Positions 16,521-28,591 are shown, counted from the stretch's first letter. The stretch: 64,000 nucleotides of DNA from Edaphocola sp. (GCA_037190225.1 JBBCJL010000001.1:317035-381034), one strand, 5' to 3'. Notes: generated by a model from the letters alone, not told the origin. Made by a program: numbers and translations.

Positions 16521-17444
16521 TTACAGGCCGTAGGTCCTTACGATCCTGTGGTTGCTGTCAAACTCATATCTTGTCCTGGTCTGTTTCTGTACGGACTGCT
16601 GCTTTTCCAGGTCGTAATAGCTATAGGTGGCCGTAACGTTATACTTGTTGTCTCCTACCTTTTCGATAACGACATCATCGTGCTTGATATTGGTCCTTTT
16701 ATTCCAGGAGTCATCGTATAGCTTTTTGATCTCGTCAAAGGTCGGGTAGTTCACGCCCCAGTAGCGTTCCATATTCTCGGAAAAGGTACTGTAAATATTG
16801 TAAATATTCTGCCTGTACTCCGCATCCATGAGCTTTTGTAAAGTAGCGGCATTGGCTTTATCATCCTCATTTTGCGCTTTGTCTGCAGCGGCGGTAGCGG
16901 CGCTGACAGTATCTGCTACAGCTGCGGGAGGGGCGGCCGGCTCAGCAGTAGGCAGGGTATTTACTGCCGGCTGGGCAGTGATGTCCGGTATATGCGTGGT
17001 ATTATCTCCGGGAGCGCCGTTGTTATCATTCATCAGGAAATAGGCCGCCACGCCCGACAGTGCTATCAGTGCGATCACCAGTCCTGTCACCAGTCCTTTG
17101 GAGGAGCCTGAACCGGCACGCGGTTCCGGGACGAGACCGGGAGAAGCCGGTACGTTATTATAGGCGGCGGCCGGGTTAAAATCCGACTGGTTGCCGGTAG
17201 CGTCCGGCCTGGGTATATCGAACAAAGGAGTGGCCGGCTGCAGGGACTTTAAAAATGCCTGTTCCAGCCGCTGTGATTCCTGCGGGGACATCTGCCAGTG
17301 ATTGTACAATCCCTGCAGGTGCTCCCGTATGGCGCTTTCTTCTATCTGCTTCCAGGAGTCGATGATCTCCTGCGGTGCCTGCTGACCGTTTTTCTGGTGA
17401 AATAAAAATGCTATATATTGAGCTATATGCTGCTTATTGATCAT
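16521..17444 (-). CDS. Bitopic membrane protein, unknown function (operon gene 6; paralogue of 17469-18632 in the N-domain)
   Basis: The ~65-aa N-terminal domain has no signal peptide (INKQHIAQYIAFLFHQKNG...SWKQIEESAIREHL). A Pro-rich linker leads to one TM helix (GLVTGLVIALIALSGVAAYFLM). An Ala/Pro-rich spacer and a ~110-aa C-terminal domain follow. Confidence 0.6.
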   Translation of the reverse strand: MINKQHIAQYIAFLFHQKNGQQAPQEIIDSWKQIEESAIREHLQGLYNHWQMSPQESQRLEQAFLKSLQPATPLFDIPRPDATGNQSDFNPAAAYNNVPASPGLVPEPRAGSGSSKGLVTGLVIALIALSGVAAYFLMNDNNGAPGDNTTHIPDITAQPAVNTLPTAEPAAPPAAVADTVSAATAAADKAQNEDDKANAATLQKLMDAEYRQNIYNIYSTFSENMERYWGVNYPTFDEIKKLYDDSWNKRTNIKHDDVVIEKVGDNKYNVTATYSYYDLEKQQSVQKQTRTRYEFDSNHRIVRTYGL

Positions 17445-17468: not shown

Positions 17469-18632
17469 TTAAAGAGAGTCGTACGACCAGGTAAAGTAGG
17501 TGATGTCGCCGGTCTCATCAAATTTGGCATGAAAAGAGGTATTCTCCTTATTGCAGGTGTAGAGGAAATAGGAGCCGTTTGTGAACCTGAACAGCAGGTC
17601 CGCGGCTTCAATATCTATCATATTGCCCCCTTCGGGATTTTTAACCTGCACTACCTGTGGCGGGAAATAGCGGTTCTCATCCGGCAAACCTTTAAACTTA
17701 TAGAATTTATTATCCGATAGCTTGCAGATGACACTGATCGTTTTTTTATCTTTTAAGGTATGCTTGATCACGCTGGTATAATCTGTGCTGTTATTCCCGC
17801 AGGGATTCTTGATATGCAGGCTATACAGCCTGCCGTCCATGGCCAGCGACCCGATAATGACCTTCCGGATATCCGATTTGATCAGGGCCATTTCTTTATT
17901 ATACCTGCTGATCTCGGAGAATACGGTCTTCTGGATGCTGCTGTAATCCTCGCTGTTGGTCAGGTAATTTTTGTTGACATATACCATTTTTTCCTCGTTG
18001 CCGAAAAGATAATCCTTAAAGGTGGCATCGTCCGTCAGCAGCTTCCTGCTTTCAGACACATTGCCTTCCTTATCCACCACTATATTATAGATGGCTGCGT
18101 CCGCTTCGCGCAGGGAAATGATGGAGCTGGGACCGGCGAATATATCCATCCTGCCTACATTTTCGCCGTGGATATTGCGTACAGCTACATTATCGGTAAC
18201 GCTGTACAGCCTTTGGAGCTGGTTGTATTGCCGGTTCTTATACACCACATAGCCGGCTGCAGCAAGGAGCGGTATGAGTATAAGGAGCAGCCATTTATAG
18301 CTCCTTTTACGGGCCGGGAGAGGTGGAGCGGGAGCGGTACGCTGCTGTGGTCCCGGCTGGTAGGCCGGCCTGGGCGCAGGATTCGGATTGCTGCCGGTCT
18401 GCTGTATATCGGATGTTTTTGGCGCATTCAGAAAGCTGTTGATCTCTGCCAGCAGCTGGGCTTCTGTCCAGCCCCACTGGCTGGTCATATTCCTGAGGTG
18501 ACCTGGTATCTCCGCATCTGGTATCTGCGACCAGGAGTTCAGCAGCTCTGGCGGGGGAGTTGTGCCATTACGTTTCCGGAACAGGTGCGCAATGAACAGC
18601 TTTACATTGCCCTGGTTGATTAACATGCTCAT
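17469..18632 (-). CDS. Bitopic membrane protein, unknown function (operon gene 5)
   Basis: The N-domain (INQGNVKLFIAHLFRKRNG...SWSQIPDAEIPGHL) aligns with gene 6. A Pro-rich linker leads to the TM helix WLLLILIPLLAAAGYVVY. A ~250-aa extracytoplasmic domain follows. Confidence 0.6.
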   Translation of the reverse strand: MSMLINQGNVKLFIAHLFRKRNGTTPPPELLNSWSQIPDAEIPGHLRNMTSQWGWTEAQLLAEINSFLNAPKTSDIQQTGSNPNPAPRPAYQPGPQQRTAPAPPLPARKRSYKWLLLILIPLLAAAGYVVYKNRQYNQLQRLYSVTDNVAVRNIHGENVGRMDIFAGPSSIISLREADAAIYNIVVDKEGNVSESRKLLTDDATFKDYLFGNEEKMVYVNKNYLTNSEDYSSIQKTVFSEISRYNKEMALIKSDIRKVIIGSLAMDGRLYSLHIKNPCGNNSTDYTSVIKHTLKDKKTISVICKLSDNKFYKFKGLPDENRYFPPQVVQVKNPEGGNMIDIEAADLLFRFTNGSYFLYTCNKENTSFHAKFDETGDITYFTWSYDSL

Positions 18633-19081
18633 TTGTTATAGGTTTTGTCTATGAGTTTTATCATTACATCGTTCGGGACAGGTACGGCCCCGTCCTTAAT
18701 GACAAAAATAGCATCAATTTTGTTTTCATTCTTACTATAATCAATTTTGAATCCAAAATCGTTCAGTCCATGTGCCAGGACCTTGTCATTGCCGTTAAAA
18801 AAATCCCTGGTAATGGCGCCCGAGTTGCTGAGCGTTACCTTTAAGCGGTTTTGCTCCGTGATAAGGGTAAGGCCAGTGCCATAGGCTTGCTGCAGCAGGT
18901 TGATAAAGGTGTCGGTAATGATATAGTTGAAATGTTCCCTGTTGAATTCCGTATTGGAAACATTCACTACCTTTTTGACGGCCTGCCTGTTGATGGCAAA
19001 TTTGACCCATAGCAGGCTGCCAGCTACCAGGACAACGGTGAGCAGGATAATGAATATCTTATAAGGTGCTGTATGCTTCAT
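18629..19081 (-). CDS. Small N-terminally anchored membrane protein, unknown function (operon gene 4)
   Basis: A single N-terminal TM helix (IFIILLTVVLVAGSLLWV) precedes a ~110-aa soluble domain. The start overlaps the upstream stop (TAATG), and the stop overlaps the downstream start (ATGA). Confidence 0.55.
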   Translation of the reverse strand: MKHTAPYKIFIILLTVVLVAGSLLWVKFAINRQAVKKVVNVSNTEFNREHFNYIITDTFINLLQQAYGTGLTLITEQNRLKVTLSNSGAITRDFFNGNDKVLAHGLNDFGFKIDYSKNENKIDAIFVIKDGAVPVPNDVMIKLIDKTYNK

Positions 19082-22000
19082 TATGGCTGGAAATATTGTT
19101 TGAATGATTTGGATTGAATGGTCTGGTCGATGATCTCGTATATAAGGTTCCAGTCGAAGTCCTGGGTATTATCCGTTACAAAATATAAGGCGTACACTTT
19201 GGCCTTCCCGATATGCTCTGCCTGTGTCAGGTCCTTGTCCGCAATGGTCAGTATCAGGCGCCTGGAGCTCTTCCGGCCTGACTGCTGCTCATTGATGGTG
19301 CCTGTCTTGGCATAGAAATAGTATTGCCCGTATTTGGCGGCGGTTCCCTGCAGCCTTCTGGCCGTCCCGCCGGTGATCACCTGCTTCATACCGGTAAAGA
19401 TATTGGCCGCGAGGAACTGGTTATACCTGTTGTTCCAGGTAGCGTCCACAGCCCAGGGGGACCGGGCCAGCTTCTGCGGTACAACACTGAGCTGCAGGTT
19501 ATTGTTCTGGGTGAACATGGACAGGTACATCTCTGCCATTTTATACGGTGTGATGCGCAGCGGGTAGCCGCCCAGCGCTGCCGTCATGACGCCCAGGTTG
19601 AAGTTCTGGTGTATCTCTGTCTGCGCCCTGTCGGACTGCAGGAAAAAGCTCTCTTCGGGGAAGCTCCACAGGTAGCCGGTATTCTTGTTCCTGCTGAGGA
19701 TATCGGACAGGTAGGGGTCCACGAAATGCACCCGGTCGTTGGTAGTGGCTTTCATATCCAGCTTATCCTTATCCTTGGTCCTGAGCCCGACATTGGTCTC
19801 AAAGCCGTTGGCCAGCAGGGAATTCTCATTCCCGAAATAAGACCGGTGGGTGGCGCTTTTGTCTGTCATCGGCCACTCTTTGCTGCCGTAATTCTTAAGG
19901 TATAGGGCCCGGCCCTTATAGGTTACAATGGGAAAGGTATTGTTCCGGCCCGGCTGGTCTGTCAGCACGCTGCTCAGCGTGTACTGGCTGCCCTGCAGGA
20001 AATCTTCCCTGGTATAGGAGCCCAGGAACATATACAGCGCGTGGTAAAAATTGCTGGAGTGTGCGATGAACGCGGGGATATCCATAGGCGCGTAATAATG
20101 CTCGTCATTTTTCCAGGGCTTGATCAGCCGGAGGCCTGCAAAATTCTCGCGGTCGCCTCCCGGTGCGGTAAAGATGAGGGATTCCCAGCCAGCATTGACC
20201 TGCGATGTGACCACTCCCGCGGTCAGCGCCTTGATGGACGAGCCGGGCCCGAGGTAGAGGTTCAGCAGGTTCCTGTTGCCCCACTGGTCCCTTTCGTTCT
20301 TGGCATTGCTATAAAAGAACTGCTGGCGCTGCAGCGCAAAAATGGTAGGCTGGTCATTCGGGTCTATGACCCGCCTGTTGCTCACATAATCGTTCATAAA
20401 GCGGATATGCCCATCACCATCGGCTCCTATAACGCTGAAGTTGAAATTGGTATGCCTGGTGCCGAAGGTCGTGCCGGCGCTTTTTTGTATCGCCCGGTGC
20501 ACCGCGGAGGACAGGTCGTAATCCAGCGTAATATAATTATTGGCCAGCAGCATGCTGTCATTGCTGTAAGCGCCCCGTATGGCGTTGGCATAGCTGTAGA
20601 TCCAGAAATTATCGCTCCTTAAAGGATAAATGATCCTGTAGGTGCCGTTGATCCATTTATTGGTGGCATATTTATTGCCTTCCGACTGGAAGCCCAGCTG
20701 GTAGGCCTTGCCCTGCTGGTAGATCGTGGCCATATCATCATATTGCAGGGTACCCGCATAGGAGGTGGCATTCTGTATCATGTTCTTCTGCGCGTTCTTA
20801 TAGATGAACACGCTTGTCTGTCCGGCATTGGCATTGATGATATTCAGGATGCCCACATTATCCTGGGCACCTTTCACCCAGTTTTTCGGGATCACGGCCA
20901 GCTGGTAATTGCCGGACGGGTTATGGGTAAAGAAAGGCAGTATGATACGGCGCTTCTCCTTGTCCGAATACAGCAGGGCGGTAGCGCTCCCTGCCGCCTG
21001 GATGGATTCAAGGATATTGCCCTGCCATATCTTACGGCTTTCCACGGGCGGCAGCTCCAGGTAGAGGTTTTTATTGTAAACGGCATTATACCTGCCATTA
21101 TCATAGATCATGAATAATGGATTGCTGAGCTGGAATGCTGTGGCAGGCTTTTGTACCAGGTTATCCAGTATGCTACGGGTATAATTATCCTTAACGACAT
21201 CGTTGCGGAGCGTCTGGAAATTGGTGTCCGCCGCGAGCAGTGTGATGACCTTATTATAGGTGATCTTTTCCCGCTTTGCTTCCATCCCGTCCTGTATGTT
21301 GGCCAGTATAGCGTTCAGGTCCTTTTCAACGTGCTCTTTGGTAGTCTCCATGACGATGGAGAAATTATCATTGTTCAGCTCATTTTCCCTGACGGTGGTC
21401 AGCGCGAAAACAGCGATCAGCGCAATAAAGAGTATATAGCGGATGCTGCTGCTCTGCACATCTACCTGGAAAGAATGCTTGGGCGTAGGACGCTGCATCA
21501 GGGTAACCGCCCACAGCAGGAGCGGCAGCAGGACGCTTAGCCTGCTGGTAAGGCTCAGGAAGGGGAAGTCCTGCCCGAAGAATACGAACCTGTTGGTAGC
21601 GGTAAGCCATACGAACAGGGCTATGGTGAACAGGATCAGCAGGGGGATCAGGCCGGTATAGCTGTCTATATCCCGCTGCCTTTCTTTGGTATTGACGAGT
21701 GTCAGCTGGTAAGCTATCAGGTAAAATACCATCGGTATCACCATCAGGAAGAGGATCAGGTACATGGTAAAATCGCCCCATTCGCTGATGACGTACCTGG
21801 CCAGCACCACATCCCTGGTCTGCGTGGAATAATCCACACCGATCCTGGAATGCGCCCGCAGGTTGATGGTCTCGCTGTTGTCATACTCCTTGGAAATATA
21901 GGAATTGATGAACCATTGGTTTTCCGCGGTCTCAATGATCTTCTGGGTCTTGAAGGAGGTGTATTCGTTGGCCTGCAGCAATTCATGGATAGGCTGGTAA

Positions 22001-24546
22001 ATAATGGAGGCGCGGTATTGCACGTGCTTCACCACATCTGCCATCTGGTGGTCCATCCATTTCCGGGTAACGGGAATGACCGCGAGAATGCCCGCCGCTA
22101 CTGCTATGACCATACCTGCCGACTGTACTCTTTTAGGCGCGGACAGGGCACGCAGCACAACAGCGGCGAGCGCCAATACCCCGAAGAAGACCCATACCTT
22201 GTAGGTCAGCAGGTAGTAGAACAGGGGCTTTACGGATAATAAGGTGAGGTACAGGGCCAGGGCTGTCAGCCCGTATATCCAGAAGTTCTGCGGCATCAGG
22301 AGCCTGTTGGCAATAGATACCCTGGTATTGGCCAGCGGCTTTTTAAGGAAGTTGACAAGGATGTTCTTCAGTAAAAGGAACAGGAAGAACAGGATGGCAA
22401 ATCCCCTGTCCGTCAGGCCGAAGAACACGAGGGTGGTAAGGGTGATAAAGGTGGTAGGATTATTGAAAAAGTAGTAAAGGAGCGCATGCAGGTGCTCCAG
22501 CCACTTCTTTTTGCCGCCGTACAGCAGGGGCTTGGGAGTATATTCAAAAGCGGCATTGGCTTTGCCGGAATAATACACATAGCCCAGTATAGGCAGCAGT
22601 ATGCTGACGATCCTGGTCAGGAGCTCGATATGCAGCACTTTCTTATTCAGCATAAATACCACGAAGCACAGGCCGATAAAGGCGATGTATTGCAGGTTGA
22701 TATTGCTGAGCCTGGGGCTGAGCTTCGTGAACAGGCTGCCGGCATCCGGCAGTACCCGGCTAAGCAGGCCGGTCCTGTACAGGATCAGCAATATTACCAT
22801 GCCGAGTATCCAGATGACCGTAAGCGGCAGGGGGAGCTGTATGCCGATATTGAAGTCAAAATTCAGGAGCGTATTTTCCAGCTCATGCTTGGAGATGTTC
22901 TCCAGCGGCGGGAAGGTTGCCAGGCGCCAGTACATGATGAACCTCAGCACCGACAGCGCCATGATGACCATCAGGATAATGGGCTCTATGCGTTCCAGCT
23001 TCTTGCCCGGGAAGAAGACCTGCAGGATCACGAACGAGGCGAAGATAAGCCCCAGGTAAAAAATGGACTTCTCCGTGCTGAAGCCGTTATCGCTGAAATC
23101 CCGGAGCTGGAAGAGGTACTGGGCTTTCTGGTCTTTGGTCAGCAGCGCGAACTTCCGGTCCGTCACCTGGATGGAGGCGCTGGACGCATTGAAGTCGGCC
23201 ACGTTCAGCTCTATGGCTGTATTGGGCTGCCCGGAAATATAATCTATGCTGCCGTTGACAGGCGTAGCGGTCACGAGCTGGTAGGTGTTGAATAAAAAGC
23301 CTTCCTTGAGATCATTGCCTATGATCTGCTCGAAATCATTGGTGATAAAGCGGATGTTCTTATTGCCCGCTTCCTGCTTGCCGGGACTCCTGAGCATATA
23401 GGTATTCGGGTAATCGAAATACAGCGCGGCATCCATTTTCCTGCTCTGCGGGTAGCCGGTTGCATCAAAGCGGTCTATATATAATTGCTTCCTGTAGTTG
23501 CTGAAGCCGATGTAGAACTTTTCCGCATAGGCGATGCCTGATGTGTTTTTGAGCCGGGGAGCGGCCGCCTGCCCGTCGATCTTTACCGTATAGTTGTTTT
23601 CAAAAACGTTCTTAGCAGGGAAGAATTTATACTGCTTGTCCGTATGTTCAAAATGGGCCAGGAGATAGCTGTCGCCCAGCTCCTGCAGCATGGCTTCCAG
23701 CACCTGGTAGCTTTCCGGCTTCCCGGATTCAAAGGTCCGGCCGTTCAGCAGCAGCTCAAACAGTTGCTTGCCTATGTTCAGGTCGGATGTGATGATCGTG
23801 ATGTGATCCTGGTAAGGCGCCTGCACATTCCACTGGGATAATATCTCGGGATTTTTGCCCGTCAGCGATACGGTAAATTGCAGCCCGTCCTTTTCATCGG
23901 ATACCAGCTTTCTGAAGAATCCCGGCTTATAAGGAGCCACCTGTATGGTGACGTCAAAGTCCGCGTTGGACAGCTGCAGCGACTGTTGTATGGGTTGGGG
24001 ATAAATATTGTTCAGCAAAGCGGCTTTCCTGCCGTCAACGGGTTTAAACACCGGGATAAAGAACCGGTCAAACTGTAAGGAGGCCGTGCTGCCGCTGCCC
24101 TTTACGGTAATACTGCCGGTCTGTGCATTGCTGTCCGTAGCGGTGCTTTCCAGGAACAGCTGATCCTGGAAAGCGATCCCGGCATTGCTGAGTCCATGGT
24201 AATCATTGTTTAAGAACCATGTGCGGTTGCCGAAGGGATGGGTAGTGGTATAGATGCACCATACACCCAGGATAAATACTACGGACAGCACGGCGAATTT
24301 GAGAATGCCTTCCCACTTTTTGCCGAACAGGAAGAGCTTATGGCCGATGCCGGGATCGTTGCCGATGTCCTTTTGCTTCTTCTGGAATACGGTATTGACA
24401 ATATCCTCCAGCTGGAGCTGCACCACGAAGTAAACAATGATGGCCATTATGGTCAGGCTGAGGAACCAGCTGATCACACTGCCCCAGAGTATGTTCATGG
24501 TGATGATGATACCTGCTGCCAGAGCAGTATAGATATATTTGAGCAT
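19081..24546 (-). CDS. Giant (1821 aa) polytopic membrane protein: N-terminal extracytoplasmic domain, ~14-TM core with SEDS-like features, and a C-terminal penicillin-binding-protein (transpeptidase-fold) domain
   Basis: The three PBP active-site motifs occur in order. GPGSSIKALT (SxxK) lies at 20230-20241, AHSSNFY (SxN) at 20050-20058, and FYAKTGT (KTG) at 19297-19308. A dimerisation-like segment lies upstream (ITLDYDLSSAVHRAIQ ... FSVIGADGDGHIRFMNDY). The membrane core has a ~90-aa loop followed by TRDVVLARYVISEWGDFTMYLILFLMV (21769-21789 encodes ISEWGDF). It also contains FFGQDFPFLSLTSRLSV (about 21550-21586). These two segments resemble the SEDS TDFIF..GEE.G..G and G.PLPF.SYGGSS regions. 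Confidence 0.7.
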   Translation of the reverse strand: MLKYIYTALAAGIIITMNILWGSVISWFLSLTIMAIIVYFVVQLQLEDIVNTVFQKKQKDIGNDPGIGHKLFLFGKKWEGILKFAVLSVVFILGVWCIYTTTHPFGNRTWFLNNDYHGLSNAGIAFQDQLFLESTATDSNAQTGSITVKGSGSTASLQFDRFFIPVFKPVDGRKAALLNNIYPQPIQQSLQLSNADFDVTIQVAPYKPGFFRKLVSDEKDGLQFTVSLTGKNPEILSQWNVQAPYQDHITIITSDLNIGKQLFELLLNGRTFESGKPESYQVLEAMLQELGDSYLLAHFEHTDKQYKFFPAKNVFENNYTVKIDGQAAAPRLKNTSGIAYAEKFYIGFSNYRKQLYIDRFDATGYPQSRKMDAALYFDYPNTYMLRSPGKQEAGNKNIRFITNDFEQIIGNDLKEGFLFNTYQLVTATPVNGSIDYISGQPNTAIELNVADFNASSASIQVTDRKFALLTKDQKAQYLFQLRDFSDNGFSTEKSIFYLGLIFASFVILQVFFPGKKLERIEPIILMVIMALSVLRFIMYWRLATFPPLENISKHELENTLLNFDFNIGIQLPLPLTVIWILGMVILLILYRTGLLSRVLPDAGSLFTKLSPRLSNINLQYIAFIGLCFVVFMLNKKVLHIELLTRIVSILLPILGYVYYSGKANAAFEYTPKPLLYGGKKKWLEHLHALLYYFFNNPTTFITLTTLVFFGLTDRGFAILFFLFLLLKNILVNFLKKPLANTRVSIANRLLMPQNFWIYGLTALALYLTLLSVKPLFYYLLTYKVWVFFGVLALAAVVLRALSAPKRVQSAGMVIAVAAGILAVIPVTRKWMDHQMADVVKHVQYRASIIYQPIHELLQANEYTSFKTQKIIETAENQWFINSYISKEYDNSETINLRAHSRIGVDYSTQTRDVVLARYVISEWGDFTMYLILFLMVIPMVFYLIAYQLTLVNTKERQRDIDSYTGLIPLLILFTIALFVWLTATNRFVFFGQDFPFLSLTSRLSVLLPLLLWAVTLMQRPTPKHSFQVDVQSSSIRYILFIALIAVFALTTVRENELNNDNFSIVMETTKEHVEKDLNAILANIQDGMEAKREKITYNKVITLLAADTNFQTLRNDVVKDNYTRSILDNLVQKPATAFQLSNPLFMIYDNGRYNAVYNKNLYLELPPVESRKIWQGNILESIQAAGSATALLYSDKEKRRIILPFFTHNPSGNYQLAVIPKNWVKGAQDNVGILNIINANAGQTSVFIYKNAQKNMIQNATSYAGTLQYDDMATIYQQGKAYQLGFQSEGNKYATNKWINGTYRIIYPLRSDNFWIYSYANAIRGAYSNDSMLLANNYITLDYDLSSAVHRAIQKSAGTTFGTRHTNFNFSVIGADGDGHIRFMNDYVSNRRVIDPNDQPTIFALQRQQFFYSNAKNERDQWGNRNLLNLYLGPGSSIKALTAGVVTSQVNAGWESLIFTAPGGDRENFAGLRLIKPWKNDEHYYAPMDIPAFIAHSSNFYHALYMFLGSYTREDFLQGSQYTLSSVLTDQPGRNNTFPIVTYKGRALYLKNYGSKEWPMTDKSATHRSYFGNENSLLANGFETNVGLRTKDKDKLDMKATTNDRVHFVDPYLSDILSRNKNTGYLWSFPEESFFLQSDRAQTEIHQNFNLGVMTAALGGYPLRITPYKMAEMYLSMFTQNNNLQLSVVPQKLARSPWAVDATWNNRYNQFLAANIFTGMKQVITGGTARRLQGTAAKYGQYYFYAKTGTINEQQSGRKSSRRLILTIADKDLTQAEHIGKAKVYALYFVTDNTQDFDWNLIYEIIDQTIQSKSFKQYFQP

Positions 24547-25655
24547 TATAAGTCTTTTAATTTATACCCGTGGATGATATAATTATCCAGGTCCTTTATT
24601 CCCAGCTGTTTCAGCACTGATATGGTCTGCCGCAGGTTGACCGGTGTTTTGTCCACAGGGGTGCCTTGCGTCAGCTCGGGGTATTTCTGGTGGTCGGACT
24701 TGTTCTTAAGCAGGGTATTGATATTGGTGATATCGTAATCCTGGCGTTTGGCCAGCTTTTCGCGGGTAATGGCGGTGTACTGTACGGAAGCCATGGTCAT
24801 ATATTTGAATATATTGGCAAGGTCCCCCTGGTCTATGGCGGATTGCAGGGGTAGTATGATTTCCTGGAATGCGGTCTTATAATAAGCTGTGTCCGCGTCT
24901 ATCGCCTGCTTTAGCTCCTTATGATTGCGCTTGAGGTCCGTATAGCTCTGCTTGAGTATTTTGCTGTCCTCGCGCAGCTTATCATATTTCTGCTTTAGCT
25001 GGGTGATGTTGACATTCGCTCTTGACCTGGGCTTGTCGGGCGGAGCGGCAGCTGCCTCTTCCTGCTGGAGCGGTGAGCCTCCCTGGCCGTCTTCTTCCAC
25101 CTCGATCTCTTCCGGCAGCGCTGCGGGCCTGGTGCCGGCCTTCGCCAGCAGGAACCCTGCCGCTATACCGGCTACGGGCAGCAATACGAACCAATACCAG
25201 TTGCTGCTGCCGGTGTTCGGGTCTGTGCCGGAGGCGTCCTGGGGCCTTACCAGCTTTTCCTGTTCGCTTCCTGCCTGGAGCTGCTGTTCATTTGCCACAT
25301 AAAGGGTGCGCTGCGGCAGCTCATTGGCATGGCTCAGCAGCTTTTCCAGGTTGTCGATATCGCCGTACTGCTTATACCTGGCATCTATCAGGTCCGCGGG
25401 GATCTTAAGCAGGCTCAGGATTTTCTGGTTGTCGGCCTTGTTCTTAAGCAGCACTTTGCCATCGCGTATCTCTATCGGTACCGTTTGCTTCTCATTATCT
25501 ACTGTAATAAGGGCGGACTGGTCGGTAGTGATCTTAATGCTGATATTTTTATCAAATCCGTTATCACTGATGATGAACGTATTTTCCCGGGTGGGCTGTG
25601 CCCACAGGAGTAGGGATTGTAAGGTGAGTATACTGATGAAAATGAATTTTTTCAT
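24546..25655 (-). CDS. Bitopic membrane protein with cytoplasmic coiled coil, unknown function (operon gene 2)
   Basis: A signal peptide (MKKFIFISILTLQSLLLWAQ) precedes a ~140-aa extracytoplasmic domain and the TM helix WYWFVLLPVAGIAAGFLLA. An acidic/Pro linker leads to a coiled coil (ITQLKQKYDKLREDSKILKQSYTDLKRNHKELKQAI) and a C-terminal globular part. The stop overlaps the start of the giant gene (TAATG). Confidence 0.6.
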   Translation of the reverse strand: MKKFIFISILTLQSLLLWAQPTRENTFIISDNGFDKNISIKITTDQSALITVDNEKQTVPIEIRDGKVLLKNKADNQKILSLLKIPADLIDARYKQYGDIDNLEKLLSHANELPQRTLYVANEQQLQAGSEQEKLVRPQDASGTDPNTGSSNWYWFVLLPVAGIAAGFLLAKAGTRPAALPEEIEVEEDGQGGSPLQQEEAAAAPPDKPRSRANVNITQLKQKYDKLREDSKILKQSYTDLKRNHKELKQAIDADTAYYKTAFQEIILPLQSAIDQGDLANIFKYMTMASVQYTAITREKLAKRQDYDITNINTLLKNKSDHQKYPELTQGTPVDKTPVNLRQTISVLKQLGIKDLDNYIIHGYKLKDL

Positions 25656-25853
25656 AGATTGTAATTGTGTATTGTTGGGTTAGATACAATAAGGATATTA
25701 TGAAATGAACTTCGGTTTAACAGCATATCCCGGTAAATGGTTGACTGCCCGGCCGGCGATCCCTGTGCGTTACGGAACGCCCTGTATTTGAATATTAGCT
25801 TTATTGGTCCCCGGGCTTTCAGGTCACGTACATTCATCCGGCATATGACCGGC

Positions 25854-25896
25854 AAGGATTCCGGTGAGCGGCCGCCGGCCGCTCACCGGAATCCTT
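25854..25896 (-). promoter_or_regulatory. 20-bp perfect inverted repeat overlapping the stop codon of the ASKHA gene (attenuator or terminator-like hairpin)
   Basis: The arms are aaggattccggtgagcggcc (25854-25873) and ggccgctcaccggaatcctt (25877-25896), with a 3-nt loop. No U tract follows on the minus strand. Confidence 0.5.
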
Positions 25897-28591
25897 AGAA
25901 ATACAAGGGGCCTGAATTGCCGCCGGTATTATTGTTGTTGTTATTGTTGCTTTTATTGTCTGCCGGGGGCTGGATGTCAAAGTACATCGGACCGTTGGCC
26001 GGCGGCGCGGGGGGCGCAGGGCTCAGGTCGATAGCTTTCTGGAACGTATGTATGAACTCTTCATCTATATAATTAGGGAACAGGGAAGGAATGACCATAT
26101 TGAGCTCGATATCCTCCGTATCGAAGATCTCCTGGAGCTCTATGATATTCTTAACGATGCCGTTCTCCAACTTCCGGACCAGGTAGCCTTTTTCCGTGAA
26201 CATCAGGTTGGCTTCCTCCCGGATGCCCGGCTGCTGGCTGTAGATGCTGTTGCCTACGATCTTATAGCGCTTGCCGCCTATGAGTATCTGGCTGTTGGCC
26301 AGGGAGTCGTAGTGCAGGCTGGTATGCGTGGTGGGTATGACCGCTTCCACGTTTTCAAGATCATTCAGCTCATTGAAAAATATCTTCAGCAGGCGGGACT
26401 GTATGCTCACTTTTGGCTTGCCTGGTGCTGCCGGGGCTTGTCCCGTCTCGGCAGCGGGCAGCTTGGGACGGCTGATGACCTGTATGGGATAGCCTATTTT
26501 TTCCGCATTCAGGCGTACGGAATTGTTGAACACGCCTTTTATACAGATATCCTTCAGCTCGTTGCCGTTCAGCAGGTGTACCCTGGACGCAGGGATATCC
26601 AGCTCCTGCTCCAGCTGCTTCCGTACCTGCTCTTCCAGGGGCTTGAAAAGGAAGGCCCTTCCGGACAGGATCACGCCGCCGCAGCTGAACTGTTCCGCAT
26701 TCTTTTTCACAAGCCTGATATTCTGCACCACGCGGGTGGCGATCACTTTGCAGGTTTCCGTGATGTAACCGTAGAAATCGCTGATATTCTCAATGCCGGT
26801 CAGCAGGTTTTTGAAGGTGCTGGTAATATCAGCGCGGCCTTCTTCGGTCAGGTTCCTGAAGTTGGTATCGCCCACGCTGGCCTGCTGCCACTGGCTCAGC
26901 ACATAGGGGCTGTTGTCCGTATATTTGAATTTCAGCCTTTCTATCTGGGCAAAAATATTGTTCTTAAGCTCCAGGTCATTGCTGTTCAGCACATTGATGA
27001 TCTTTTCCTTGATGAATTTAAACGCTTCGTGCTGGTTGGACGCATTGGCCCTGATATAATGTAATATGGTCTCGAAAACGGCAAAGGTGATCAGGTTGCC
27101 CGCGCCCGCAAAGCCGTTGCGGTACACGGTCTTGATGTCGAAAACATTACGGGCGCCGGTCCGGATGATGGAAAGGTCCGTTGTGCCTTTACCGGAATCT
27201 ATAATGACATATTCCCGGTTCTTGTCGATCTGGGTATCGTTCTTATTGATATAGCCCAGGAAGGACGCATCGCTTTCCGATATGGTAATGATCTCCCAGC
27301 TCAGCAGCTTGCCTTTGTACTCATGGTCTGCAAGCGACTGGAAGATATTGTGCAGGATCTGCTGGGTGCTTTTGATGTCGTAAAAATCATAAATATTGGG
27401 TACCAGCAGGATGAAGCGGATCTTACGGGTGGCATCATAGGAAATGAGGAATTCCTTTTTCAGGAAGGATTCTATCATCACCCTTAAGATGGTATTGTAC
27501 ACCTTGTTCTTCATGACGCCCAGGCTCACATTGATATCGTAGCCCTCCTTGTCGATGTTGAAGTTGATGCCGGAAAAGAGGCTGTCGTACTTCTGGGTGA
27601 TCTTGAGGTTCGGGAGCTGGTGATACTTATTTTGCGTCAGCACCTGGTAGCCGTCATGCGTATTGACCAGCATCTTCAGGTTATGCGCCACATCGGCTAT
27701 AAAGAGATCCTTATAGATATTGTCGTACTGCCCGCTCTGGTTCTCCTTCAGGAAGAAGATGGATTTATAGAAATTGGTGTTCTTCTCTTCCTGGTAATAG
27801 CTGGCCTGCTCCTCTTTGCTGATCCAGCCCTGGGATTTGTTGAATGCCAGGATGTTTTTGAACAGGTTCTCTATTTCCGGGCGCATCTGCTGGTGATGCT
27901 CACCATACTGGTAGCGCTTGATGGCCATCTGGCTGGCTTCGGAGCCGAAATCCAGCGCAATGCCCAGGAACTGCTCGGGGTGCGCGAAGCTGATGGTGGT
28001 CTTATTGCTGAACTGCTGTCCTTCCGTTTCCAGTGTCAGCTCCAGGGTAAGGTCGGGAAAGGCGGCATCCAGCAGCTTATTGAAAGCGCCGGTGATATAG
28101 CCGGTCACCAGCATGGCGCCGTTGCTGTACCTGTGCCGGATGAATTTGATGGTATCCTGCCACACGCCTATGATCTCGGAATCGGATTGCACGGCTTCCA
28201 CGGTGTTCTGGGCTGTTACCTTTTCCTTTTTAGGGGCTGATTTGAACAGCTCCAGGTCCTCGTAGCTGTACACCGGGGGCGGTTCGGGCGCTTCCTGCTC
28301 CGGCTCGGGCGCTTCATATAAAGGTTGCTTTTTCCTGGGGCCGATGTGCAGGCGTAAAGTGTCAGACTCCAGGATGCACTGTACGGAACAGTCCTTGATA
28401 TCAAGATCGGGGTGTTGCGGGATGAAGCTTTTTAAAATGCTGTCCGCCTGCAGCTCCGCAATATTGAAATGGGCGTTCCTGTGCGCCTCTACTATATATT
28501 TGAATACGGTGATATCATCCTTCTGGTGATATAAATTGATGATTTTTTCTCTTCTGTCGTTAATAATGATCGGTAAGCTATAAAAGTCCAT
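25895..28591 (-). CDS. Divergent actin/Hsp70-superfamily (ASKHA-fold) ATPase, 898 aa (operon gene 1)
   Basis: Three ordered motifs are present. The phosphate-1-like motif is LGIALDFGSEASQMAI (about 27929-27961). The phosphate-2 motif is EYVIIDSGKGTTDLSII (DSGKGTTD at 27177-27200). The adenosine-like motif is CGGVILSGRAFLF (about 26661-26689). There is no signal peptide or TM helix. The protein has a ~200-aa N-terminal extension and a Pro-rich, poly-Asn C-terminal tail (SPAPPAPPANGPMYF...NNKSNNNNNNNTGGNSGPLYF). Confidence 0.65.
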   Translation of the reverse strand: MDFYSLPIIINDRREKIINLYHQKDDITVFKYIVEAHRNAHFNIAELQADSILKSFIPQHPDLDIKDCSVQCILESDTLRLHIGPRKKQPLYEAPEPEQEAPEPPPVYSYEDLELFKSAPKKEKVTAQNTVEAVQSDSEIIGVWQDTIKFIRHRYSNGAMLVTGYITGAFNKLLDAAFPDLTLELTLETEGQQFSNKTTISFAHPEQFLGIALDFGSEASQMAIKRYQYGEHHQQMRPEIENLFKNILAFNKSQGWISKEEQASYYQEEKNTNFYKSIFFLKENQSGQYDNIYKDLFIADVAHNLKMLVNTHDGYQVLTQNKYHQLPNLKITQKYDSLFSGINFNIDKEGYDINVSLGVMKNKVYNTILRVMIESFLKKEFLISYDATRKIRFILLVPNIYDFYDIKSTQQILHNIFQSLADHEYKGKLLSWEIITISESDASFLGYINKNDTQIDKNREYVIIDSGKGTTDLSIIRTGARNVFDIKTVYRNGFAGAGNLITFAVFETILHYIRANASNQHEAFKFIKEKIINVLNSNDLELKNNIFAQIERLKFKYTDNSPYVLSQWQQASVGDTNFRNLTEEGRADITSTFKNLLTGIENISDFYGYITETCKVIATRVVQNIRLVKKNAEQFSCGGVILSGRAFLFKPLEEQVRKQLEQELDIPASRVHLLNGNELKDICIKGVFNNSVRLNAEKIGYPIQVISRPKLPAAETGQAPAAPGKPKVSIQSRLLKIFFNELNDLENVEAVIPTTHTSLHYDSLANSQILIGGKRYKIVGNSIYSQQPGIREEANLMFTEKGYLVRKLENGIVKNIIELQEIFDTEDIELNMVIPSLFPNYIDEEFIHTFQKAIDLSPAPPAPPANGPMYFDIQPPADNKSNNNNNNNTGGNSGPLYF

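Follow-up and report, generated by a model that had tools for sequence, protein, structure and literature searches.

An ASKHA-fold protein family encoded beside a giant PBP-like membrane protein in Bacteroidota

Cell-wall growth is thought to rest on two machines that pair a SEDS protein with a penicillin-binding protein of class B (bPBP), one relying on MreB for elongation and the other on FtsA for division. In each, a cytoplasmic ATPase of the ASKHA superfamily acts with single-pass adaptors on the enzymes, MreB on RodA-PBP2 through RodZ and FtsA on FtsW-FtsI through FtsN. A comparable set of proteins, namely a predicted cytoplasmic ASKHA ATPase, single-pass membrane proteins and a membrane protein that is class-B-PBP-like and possibly SEDS-like, is encoded in one gene cassette of Edaphocola sp., within the 64,000-nucleotide stretch analysed here (GCA_037190225.1 JBBCJL010000001.1:317035-381034; hereafter the window). 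The ATPase gene is an open reading frame (ORF) with an ATG start that encodes an 898-residue protein at 25895-28591. An earlier note made from the sequence alone (the sequence-only reading) had placed an ORF of this length at these coordinates; the ORF is there, and its strand, which that reading did not give, is the minus strand, as it is for every cassette feature given below.

Fusions of SEDS and bPBP modules are documented in other phyla; that of Rhodococcus jostii is a glycosyltransferase-pedestal-transpeptidase protein of 947 residues whose gene is flanked by mreB (PMC12516126). The 1821-residue polytopic membrane protein of the window (19081-24546), here called the giant protein, similarly places what looks like a glycosyltransferase-type membrane block ahead of a transpeptidase-fold domain in one polypeptide. 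Its family is about twice as long, however, is linked to a different ASKHA family, and is for the most part recognised by neither the SEDS nor the PBP models of InterPro/Pfam, both of which recognise the described fusions. Compared with the MreB and FtsA machines, the cassette appears to fuse the two enzyme modules within about 1,800 residues, with about six extra transmembrane segments (segments 1-6) and a predicted 395-residue periplasmic N-domain (residues 99-493); its ATPase is a relative of MreB or FtsA neither in sequence nor in closest structure, and no cassette adaptor matches the Pfam or NCBIfam models of MreC/D, RodZ, FtsN or FtsQLB. CoCoNuT CnuD represents divergent Hsp70-like units outside classical chaperoning, sometimes associated with HEPN nucleases, and its ATP-site motifs are described as degenerate (PMC11090510). 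The family described here shares the association of an Hsp70-like protein with HEPN, to which one of its subclades is fused, but its ATP-site motifs are invariant, and neither a McrBC context nor a PADLOC match was found.

In an AlphaFold2 model computed from a 41-sequence alignment with a mean column identity of 44%, the window protein adopts an ASKHA fold (predicted local distance difference test (pLDDT) 79, predicted template-modelling score (pTM) 0.79; model and alignment start after Met1, and residue numbers here are those of the protein). Foldseek returns 290 matches to PDB structures at E<=1e-3, and the best 50 of the 290 are all Hsp70-family chains, headed by BiP (6asy, 2.9e-11) and including Sse1/Hsp110, DnaK and Ssb (E 1e-11 to 1e-9); MreB, FtsA and ParM are absent from those 50. 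Targets that consist of the nucleotide-binding domain (NBD) only align with a template-modelling score (TM-score) of about 0.6 over about 510 columns, at only 11-13% identity. The sequence-only reading had proposed an ASKHA fold and had left the closest subfamily to a Foldseek comparison of an AlphaFold model; the fold is borne out, and the nearest solved structures are the NBDs of Hsp70 proteins (DnaK, BiP, Hsp110/Sse1), with which the model shares the four-subdomain layout IA/IB/IIA/IIB and the register of the connect-1 and phosphate-2 motifs.

The three nucleotide-site motifs stand in the order claimed for them: phosphate 1, ALDFGSEASQ (residues 212-221, 27929-27958); phosphate 2, IIDSGKGTTDLSII (residues 463-476, 27164-27205, a span that encloses the 27177-27200 given earlier); and adenosine, GGVILSGRAF (residues 638-647, 26651-26680). 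Across 73 family members, with identity down to 24%, every one retains D214, G216 and Q221 of the first motif, D465, G467, G469, T470, T471 and D472 of the second, and G644 and R645 of the third, and K330, S438-E-S-D441 and R491 are likewise invariant (73/73). This invariance of the nucleotide-site residues argues for a working ATP site. The motifs also fall on equivalent structural elements: D214 closes the first strand of a beta-hairpin in the model, G638-R645 has a strand before it and a helix after it, and an hhalign alignment to Escherichia coli DnaK sets ISESDAS against INEPTAA and DSGKGTTD against DLGGGTFD in register. Fold and motifs, in order and on the expected strands and turns of the predicted structure, place the protein in the ASKHA superfamily. 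The large spacing of the motifs, noticed earlier and ascribed to big insertions, exceeds that of both E. coli DnaK and MreB, with 251 residues between phosphate 1 and phosphate 2 against about 186 in DnaK, and the model does contain the insertions, in that subdomains IB (residues ~241-387) and IIB (~496-635) are roughly twice their Hsp70 size.

At the level of sequence the family stands apart. A search of a 5.8-billion-protein database returns 631 homologs at E<=1e-3, which together with the strong conservation makes the ORF a genuine gene, far beyond chance. Searches of Pfam (PF00012 included), NCBIfam, PADLOC and PDB sequences with the window protein gave no meaningful match, and a search of PDB sequences with the family profile gave non-significant matches only, the sole ASKHA match among them being an MreB at the phosphate-2 motif (E 0.42). 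When the profile was aligned by hhalign to single E. coli sequences, DnaK reached a probability of 31% (E 5e-4), MreB 15% and FtsA 7.5%. An exhaustive hidden Markov model search through 1.84 billion cluster representatives yielded 434 proteins at E<=1e-3, 384 of them at E<=1e-10, and reached neither Hsp70 nor MreB; with only 434 representatives found, the family is sharply bounded. The statement that the protein is neither a recognisable MreB/FtsA/ParM nor a DnaK/HscA thus agrees with these profile and domain searches. One relative, from Edaphocola flava, bears the NCBI name 'acetate and sugar kinases/Hsc70/actin family protein', which is a superfamily-level name only, and the literature searched holds no description of the family or its cassette. 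Since the fold is already known, the protein does not count as one of a new kind; its family is an unnamed ASKHA family with a new architecture, in a strict partnership with the giant protein that appears undescribed.

The model divides the protein into a central ATPase core and flanking ordered and disordered parts. An N-terminal beta-domain (residues 1-89, 28325-28591), in which (Y)xLPxxINxRR is kept even in remote members, is followed by a disordered Pro/Glu linker (residues 90-130, 28202-28324; pLDDT <50) with the short motif SYEDLELF at about residues 109-116, of which YEDL stands in the family consensus. A second beta-domain (residues 136-203, 27983-28186), conserved family-wide, precedes the core, and remote profile matches begin in this region, at profile positions ~125-180. 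The ASKHA ATPase core itself, supported by AlphaFold2, Foldseek and hhalign, spans residues ~208-707 (26471-27970). After a disordered Pro/Ala linker (residues 712-746) comes a C-terminal alpha/beta domain (residues 748-851, 26039-26350) of about 100 residues, beta-rich and with a near-invariant PSLFP at its end, and then a disordered Pro/Asn tail (residues 861-898, 25898-26011). The predicted flanks agree with the roughly 200 residues claimed to precede the fold (about 205, comprising both beta-domains) and fall short of the 250 claimed to follow it (about 190). Unlike an Hsp70, the protein thus carries two domains ahead of its core, and its gene lies in an operon with an envelope enzyme. Neither a transmembrane segment nor a signal peptide is predicted, and we read the protein as cytoplasmic.

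The tail, which ends ...PAPPAPPANGPMYFDIQPPADNKSNNNNNNNTGGNSGPLYF before the stop codon, contains an internal GPMYF and a terminal GPLYF-COOH, the two similar (G)P(M/L)YF endings that the sequence-only reading had described and had thought might be short linear docking motifs. That idea gains support from relatives: every member of the window clade ends in [G/N/D][P/D/E][L/I/Q/M][Y/F/L/K]F-COOH after a disordered linker, and several, as in the window protein, have a second, internal copy. Elsewhere the C-termini differ in sequence, L(M/I)(S/D)LLPD in the Emticicia clade and acidic-hydrophobic tips such as DDMWDYL, DLLDEYF and YEDLMPF in remote members, the last of which resembles the N-linker motif SYEDLELF of the window protein. 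This pattern suggests that the tails behave like short linear docking motifs, a candidate function. Hsp70 shares this arrangement of a disordered linker that leads to a conserved motif at the very C-terminus.

The most informative fact, which the sequence-only reading did not include, is that the gene is linked to that of the giant protein. Of the genome loci, 70 extend more than 3 kb beyond the gene in the downstream direction, and in 68 of these a giant-protein homolog is encoded downstream and on the same strand, the most remote loci included. The recurrent order comprises five genes, for the ATPase, a variable single-pass protein, the giant protein, an anchored protein of ~150-190 residues and a further membrane protein that is usually single-pass, an arrangement that does not differ between Chitinophagales, Cytophagales, Flavobacteriales, Saprospiraceae, Bacteroidales and one Fibrobacter metagenome-assembled genome (MAG). 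In the window, the downstream genes are closely spaced, and their start codons overlap with stop codons. The variable second gene (24546-25655) encodes a 369-residue single-pass protein with a signal peptide, a periplasmic domain, a transmembrane segment at residues 156-174 and a cytoplasmic coiled-coil tail. Beyond the giant protein, the conserved fourth gene (18629-19081) encodes a 150-residue protein with an N-terminal transmembrane anchor and a periplasmic domain, and the conserved fifth (17469-18632) a 387-residue single-pass protein with a cytoplasmic N-domain of ~70 residues, a Pro-rich linker, a transmembrane segment at 112-130 and a 257-residue periplasmic domain. A 307-residue paralog of the latter, present in Chitinophagaceae-type cassettes, follows at 16521-17444, the paralogy being evident in the ~70-residue cytoplasmic N-domain (E 1e-12). 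The five operon partners of the ATPase gave no meaningful match in Pfam, NCBIfam, PADLOC or PDB-sequence searches, and weak matches to CgeC, GltJ, a myosin lever and a T7SS effector were dismissed as low-complexity or coiled-coil similarity. As side observations, the window ATPase has two similar tail motifs and the 387- and 307-residue proteins contribute two paralogous N-domains; only two loci with ample downstream DNA, L011:9998-12667 (a 71%-identical Taibaiella MAG) and L082:9314-12652, have no giant-protein homolog after the gene, which could mean that a gene was lost, that the copy stands alone or that the assembly is chimeric.

The giant protein has about 14 transmembrane segments beyond its periplasmic N-domain and a C-terminus with the fold of a class-B PBP transpeptidase. 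In an AlphaFold2 model of residues 622-1821, confident in the C-terminal part only, Foldseek matches this part to class-B PBPs, including Pseudomonas aeruginosa PBP3 (7atx, 1.6e-6), and to Neisseria gonorrhoeae PBP2 transpeptidase domains with a TM-score of 0.68. The catalytic-type motifs are in place: among 64 homologs with 21-97% identity, S1436xxK1439 and S1497xN1499 are invariant (64/64) and K1747-T-G is found in all except one (63/64). On seven homologs the Pfam transpeptidase model PF00905 itself is detected, and one homolog is named FtsI/PBP2 by JGI. For the pedestal region, the aligned span in Foldseek is about equal for transpeptidase-only and full-length PBPs, and model confidence is mixed over residues 1053-1350. 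The modelled fold and the motifs together place a periplasmic domain of class-B PBP transpeptidase fold at the C-terminus.

Upstream of this domain lies a conserved 91-residue periplasmic loop (828-918), then exactly four transmembrane segments, then the PBP domain. A fusion of a SEDS protein (10 transmembrane segments) with a bPBP (one segment) predicts just this succession, and so the topology fits. Characteristic of the SEDS core of ten segments are a large extracellular loop 4, a catalytic Asp ahead of segment 8 and a GxxLPxxSYGG loop ahead of segment 10. Residues that are invariant or nearly so, R845, Q909, D912, R917, E922, R986, G991-Q-D993, P995 and S998, fall in periplasmic loops as judged from hydropathy and the positive-inside rule. 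When residues 825-1060 were compared by hhalign with a SEDS profile of 61 sequences (RodA and FtsW of E. coli, Thermus thermophilus RodA and 58 metagenomic RodA-like proteins), one match of 105 columns was obtained (score 30.5, P 0.0018, probability 14.6%), which pairs D912 with the catalytic Asp of RodA (HTDF; RodA D262) and GQDFPFLS with GVPLPLVS. None of 200 block-shuffled controls scored at or above the native value (mean 16.5, standard deviation 2.7, maximum 26.8), and with a longer query, residues 480-1060, the reversed profile scored 19.2 against a native 27.3. Alignment of the giant-protein profile to single E. coli RodA and FtsW sequences gave no match, but the positive control PBP2 failed as well (0.4%), and that test is therefore without power. 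Topology and motifs are thus suggestive, short of proof, of a SEDS-like (RodA/FtsW) glycosyltransferase in the membrane block. The N-terminal part of the giant protein contains further conserved motifs that lack detectable relatives, for example ATFPPLENI (543-551) and DRGFA (713-717).

The reading that we prefer, with a probability of roughly one half, is that the ASKHA protein serves a peptidoglycan-type synthase as its ATP-driven switch or scaffold in the cytoplasm and that the cassette encodes an envelope machine. The protein would bind and hydrolyse ATP at its intact Hsp70/actin-type site, and would dock on the cytoplasmic parts of its membrane partners through its extra domains and the motifs SYEDLELF, GPMYF and GPLYF-COOH; candidate docking sites are the ~70-residue N-domains of the 387- and 307-residue proteins, the coiled-coil tail of the 369-residue protein and loops of the giant protein. 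Once docked, it would position or switch the synthase from inside the cell, as MreB does through RodZ and FtsA through FtsN. The scheme presumes physical contact between these proteins, peptidoglycan as the substrate of the synthase, and regulation that runs from the ATPase to the enzyme.

Several observations weigh against this picture. The closest structures are Hsp70 NBDs, not MreB or FtsA, and the analogy to a cytoskeletal organiser consequently draws on gene context only. The SEDS comparison is not significant by HH-suite standards (probability 14.6%), and no Pfam or PDB sequence model, PF01098 included, detects either enzyme module in the window giant protein, a profile search of PDB sequences having given non-significant matches only; the membrane block is modelled with low confidence, and Foldseek consequently reported only the PBP domain. 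The cassette is patchy in distribution and diverges quickly, clades sharing 22-27% identity, and some genomes have it twice (L037+L066, L038+L070); such a pattern is less typical of core morphogenesis than of systems with an accessory or conflict role. Finally, a pure synthase-regulator model does not predict that some members would be fused to HEPN.

These fusions form a subclade in Cytophagales, in which a Swt1-like HEPN domain (HEPN_Swt1) with an intact RNxxxH precedes the ASKHA protein. They come from Runella and Persicitalea genomes and from metagenome proteins (P0210, P0224 and P0241), and the RNxxxH motif predicts that the HEPN RNase is apparently active. Loci with this N-terminal region (L060:9122-12142, L064:9074-12043 and L075:9053-12016) lie in the same cassette, upstream of the giant PBP-like protein; the last of them, from Dyadobacter, has the same region and the RNxxxH, but no significant Pfam match. 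The idea that the fused relatives stand in a different gene context was rejected, as a giant-protein homolog lies downstream of them and the P0210 contig (L003) simply ends after the gene.

The fusions bear on a rival that we consider unlikely, in which the cassette is an envelope-surveillance or conflict system: the PBP-like domain of the giant protein, with its lipid-facing loops, would sense wall damage, beta-lactams or phage, and the ASKHA ATPase would relay the signal in the cytoplasm to an effector, either the fused HEPN RNase or the N- or C-terminal accessory domains. Its model is the class of BlaR1/MecR1-type proteins, which are sensors with a PBP-like domain, and sensor PBP domains likewise retain the active-site serine. 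The intact RNxxxH in genes that still stand upstream of a giant protein fits such a relay, as do the patchy distribution, the paired cassettes, the fast divergence and the variable second gene, and divergent Hsp70-like units are known in defence systems, CoCoNuT CnuD being an example (PMC11090510). What speaks against surveillance is that most cassettes, the window's included, have no recognisable effector, that PADLOC matches no cassette protein (zero families of PADLOC-DB 2.0 for all seven window proteins tested), and that the membrane block has, in its periplasmic loops, invariant acidic and basic residues that resemble catalytic residues more than sensory ones. The setting is equally unlike that of a defence system: a mobile or defence-island location was considered and rejected, since the flanks of some 50 cassettes consist of heterogeneous housekeeping genes with no enrichment of defence genes, and searches of plasmids and phages found no copies of the cassette.

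The structural matches invite another reading, quite unlikely in our judgement, in which the protein is a dedicated Hsp70-type chaperone whose ATP clamp folds, inserts or assembles the 1821-residue protein, with its ~17 transmembrane segments, and the single-pass partners. The C-terminal tip would then act like the EEVD tail of Hsp70, which recruits co-factors. All of the best 50 of 290 Foldseek matches belong to the Hsp70 family, DnaK gives the best hhalign score of DnaK, MreB and FtsA, the C-terminal domain is beta-rich and followed by a linker and conserved tip, and DnaK-like genes adjoin the cassette at two loci (L030 and L078). Against this, no substrate-binding domain is detectable, full-length Hsp70 targets bring no gain in TM-score over NBD-only ones, no Pfam match is obtained, and the family profile misses true Hsp70s. 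Neither a J-domain nor a nucleotide-exchange partner occurs among the cassette proteins in Pfam and NCBIfam searches, a possible J-like neighbour being present only at L078 and outside the cassette, and it would be unusual for a chaperone to be tied stoichiometrically, through its operon, to just one client.

A filament-forming bacterial actin, in the manner of MreB, FtsA or ParM, that tracks or positions the synthase as a membrane-associated polymer is improbable. The logic of the operon parallels mreB-mreC-mreD-pbp2-rodA and the association of ftsA with ftsW/ftsI, the membrane or adjacent protomers could be bound through the hydrophobic motifs at the protein's end, and the profile search of PDB sequences did touch the MreB phosphate-2 motif, at the non-significant E of 0.42; but no actin-like protein is among the best 50 of the 290 structural matches, and with IB and IIB doubled in size and two domains added at the N-terminus, the longitudinal contacts would depart from the canonical ones. 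An ASKHA small-molecule kinase (of the sugar or anhydro-N-acetylmuramic acid type) acting on a cell-wall precursor would suit the cell-wall context of the operon and a superfamily that includes peptidoglycan-recycling kinases, but it is very improbable, as the DxGxGTTD and SESDAS motifs, which can be aligned with DnaK, belong to the Hsp70/actin type, the neighbours in structure are Hsp70s and not kinases, and metabolic kinases do not typically have large accessory domains or docking tails.

If the preferred reading, an ATP-driven switch or scaffold of a peptidoglycan-type synthase, is true, the cassette would constitute a third, phylum-specific pairing of SEDS-bPBP enzymes with an ATPase, one that is Hsp70-like and whose enzymes are apparently fused in one giant protein, and it would offer a test case for a cytoplasmic ATP switch that controls an enzyme outside the membrane. 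If it is instead an envelope sensor, at which the HEPN-fused variants hint, it would represent a new class of envelope-triggered response. Our tentative view, at somewhat less than even odds, is that the cassette is one of these two, a third and so far unrecognised SEDS-bPBP machine of many Bacteroidota with an Hsp70-like organiser that docks through short linear motifs, or a trans-envelope integrity sensor whose PBP-like detector is coupled by the Hsp70-like ATPase to effectors, a HEPN RNase for example; in either case, known folds would make up a system of a new type. The window genes from that of the ATPase through that of the 307-residue protein, six in all, are currently without an assigned function, and because standard domain models fail to recognise the transpeptidase and SEDS-like modules, both are missed in surveys of peptidoglycan synthases. 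Cultured hosts of the cassette exist in Taibaiella, Edaphocola, Emticicia, Runella and Dyadobacter.

Outside Bacteroidota the family is hardly found. When 185,579 species genomes were scanned, 77 ASKHA loci came to light, in Chitinophagaceae (Taibaiella, Edaphocola and Flavipsychrobacter), Cytophagales (Emticicia, Lacihabitans, Runella, Persicitalea and Dyadobacter), Flavobacteriaceae, Saprospiraceae, Bacteroidales MAGs and one Fibrobacter MAG; a few MAG contigs with a locus bear the names of other taxa in their titles (Bifidobacterium, Cyanobium). In some genomes, two of Emticicia and one Lacihabitans MAG, the cassette is present as a whole in two divergent copies (L037+L066, L038+L070 and L058+L071). 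The MAG 'Bacteroidetes bacterium 47-18' is 96% identical to the window at the level of protein. A gene for a 203-residue lipoprotein upstream of the ATPase gene was considered as a cassette member and set aside, being conserved only in this 96%-identical MAG.

The neighbourhood of the cassette in the window is chromosomal and of a housekeeping character, with topoisomerase, gyrase-type subunit and aminotransferase genes nearby. In two distant lineages, the cassette has canonical DnaK-like genes immediately upstream (L030:4178-6034 and L078:4399-5859), and in the second of these a gene in between (L078:6560-9526) encodes a 989-residue protein with a J-domain-like start (NYYILLDLSPEE...LRTHP) and a double zinc ribbon.

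Between the ATPase gene and the membrane-protein genes, the window has a GC-rich RNA hairpin with a perfect 21-bp stem (25853-25897; folding free energy -42.5 kcal/mol, z -7.7) that overlaps the ASKHA stop codon. The only one of its kind in the window, it sits within an intergenic gap of 239 nucleotides, which measures only 26-30 nucleotides in relatives (L001, L010). The hairpin could act as terminator or attenuator at the junction of the ATPase and membrane genes, or could be an inserted palindromic element, and in the window lineage it may set different expression levels for the two. At the left end of the window, an edge ORF on the plus strand (20-1345) with GNVR and AAA_31/ParA-type domains corresponds to the C-terminal part of a polysaccharide co-polymerase/tyrosine-kinase-type protein, and its domain content indicates an exopolysaccharide locus there.

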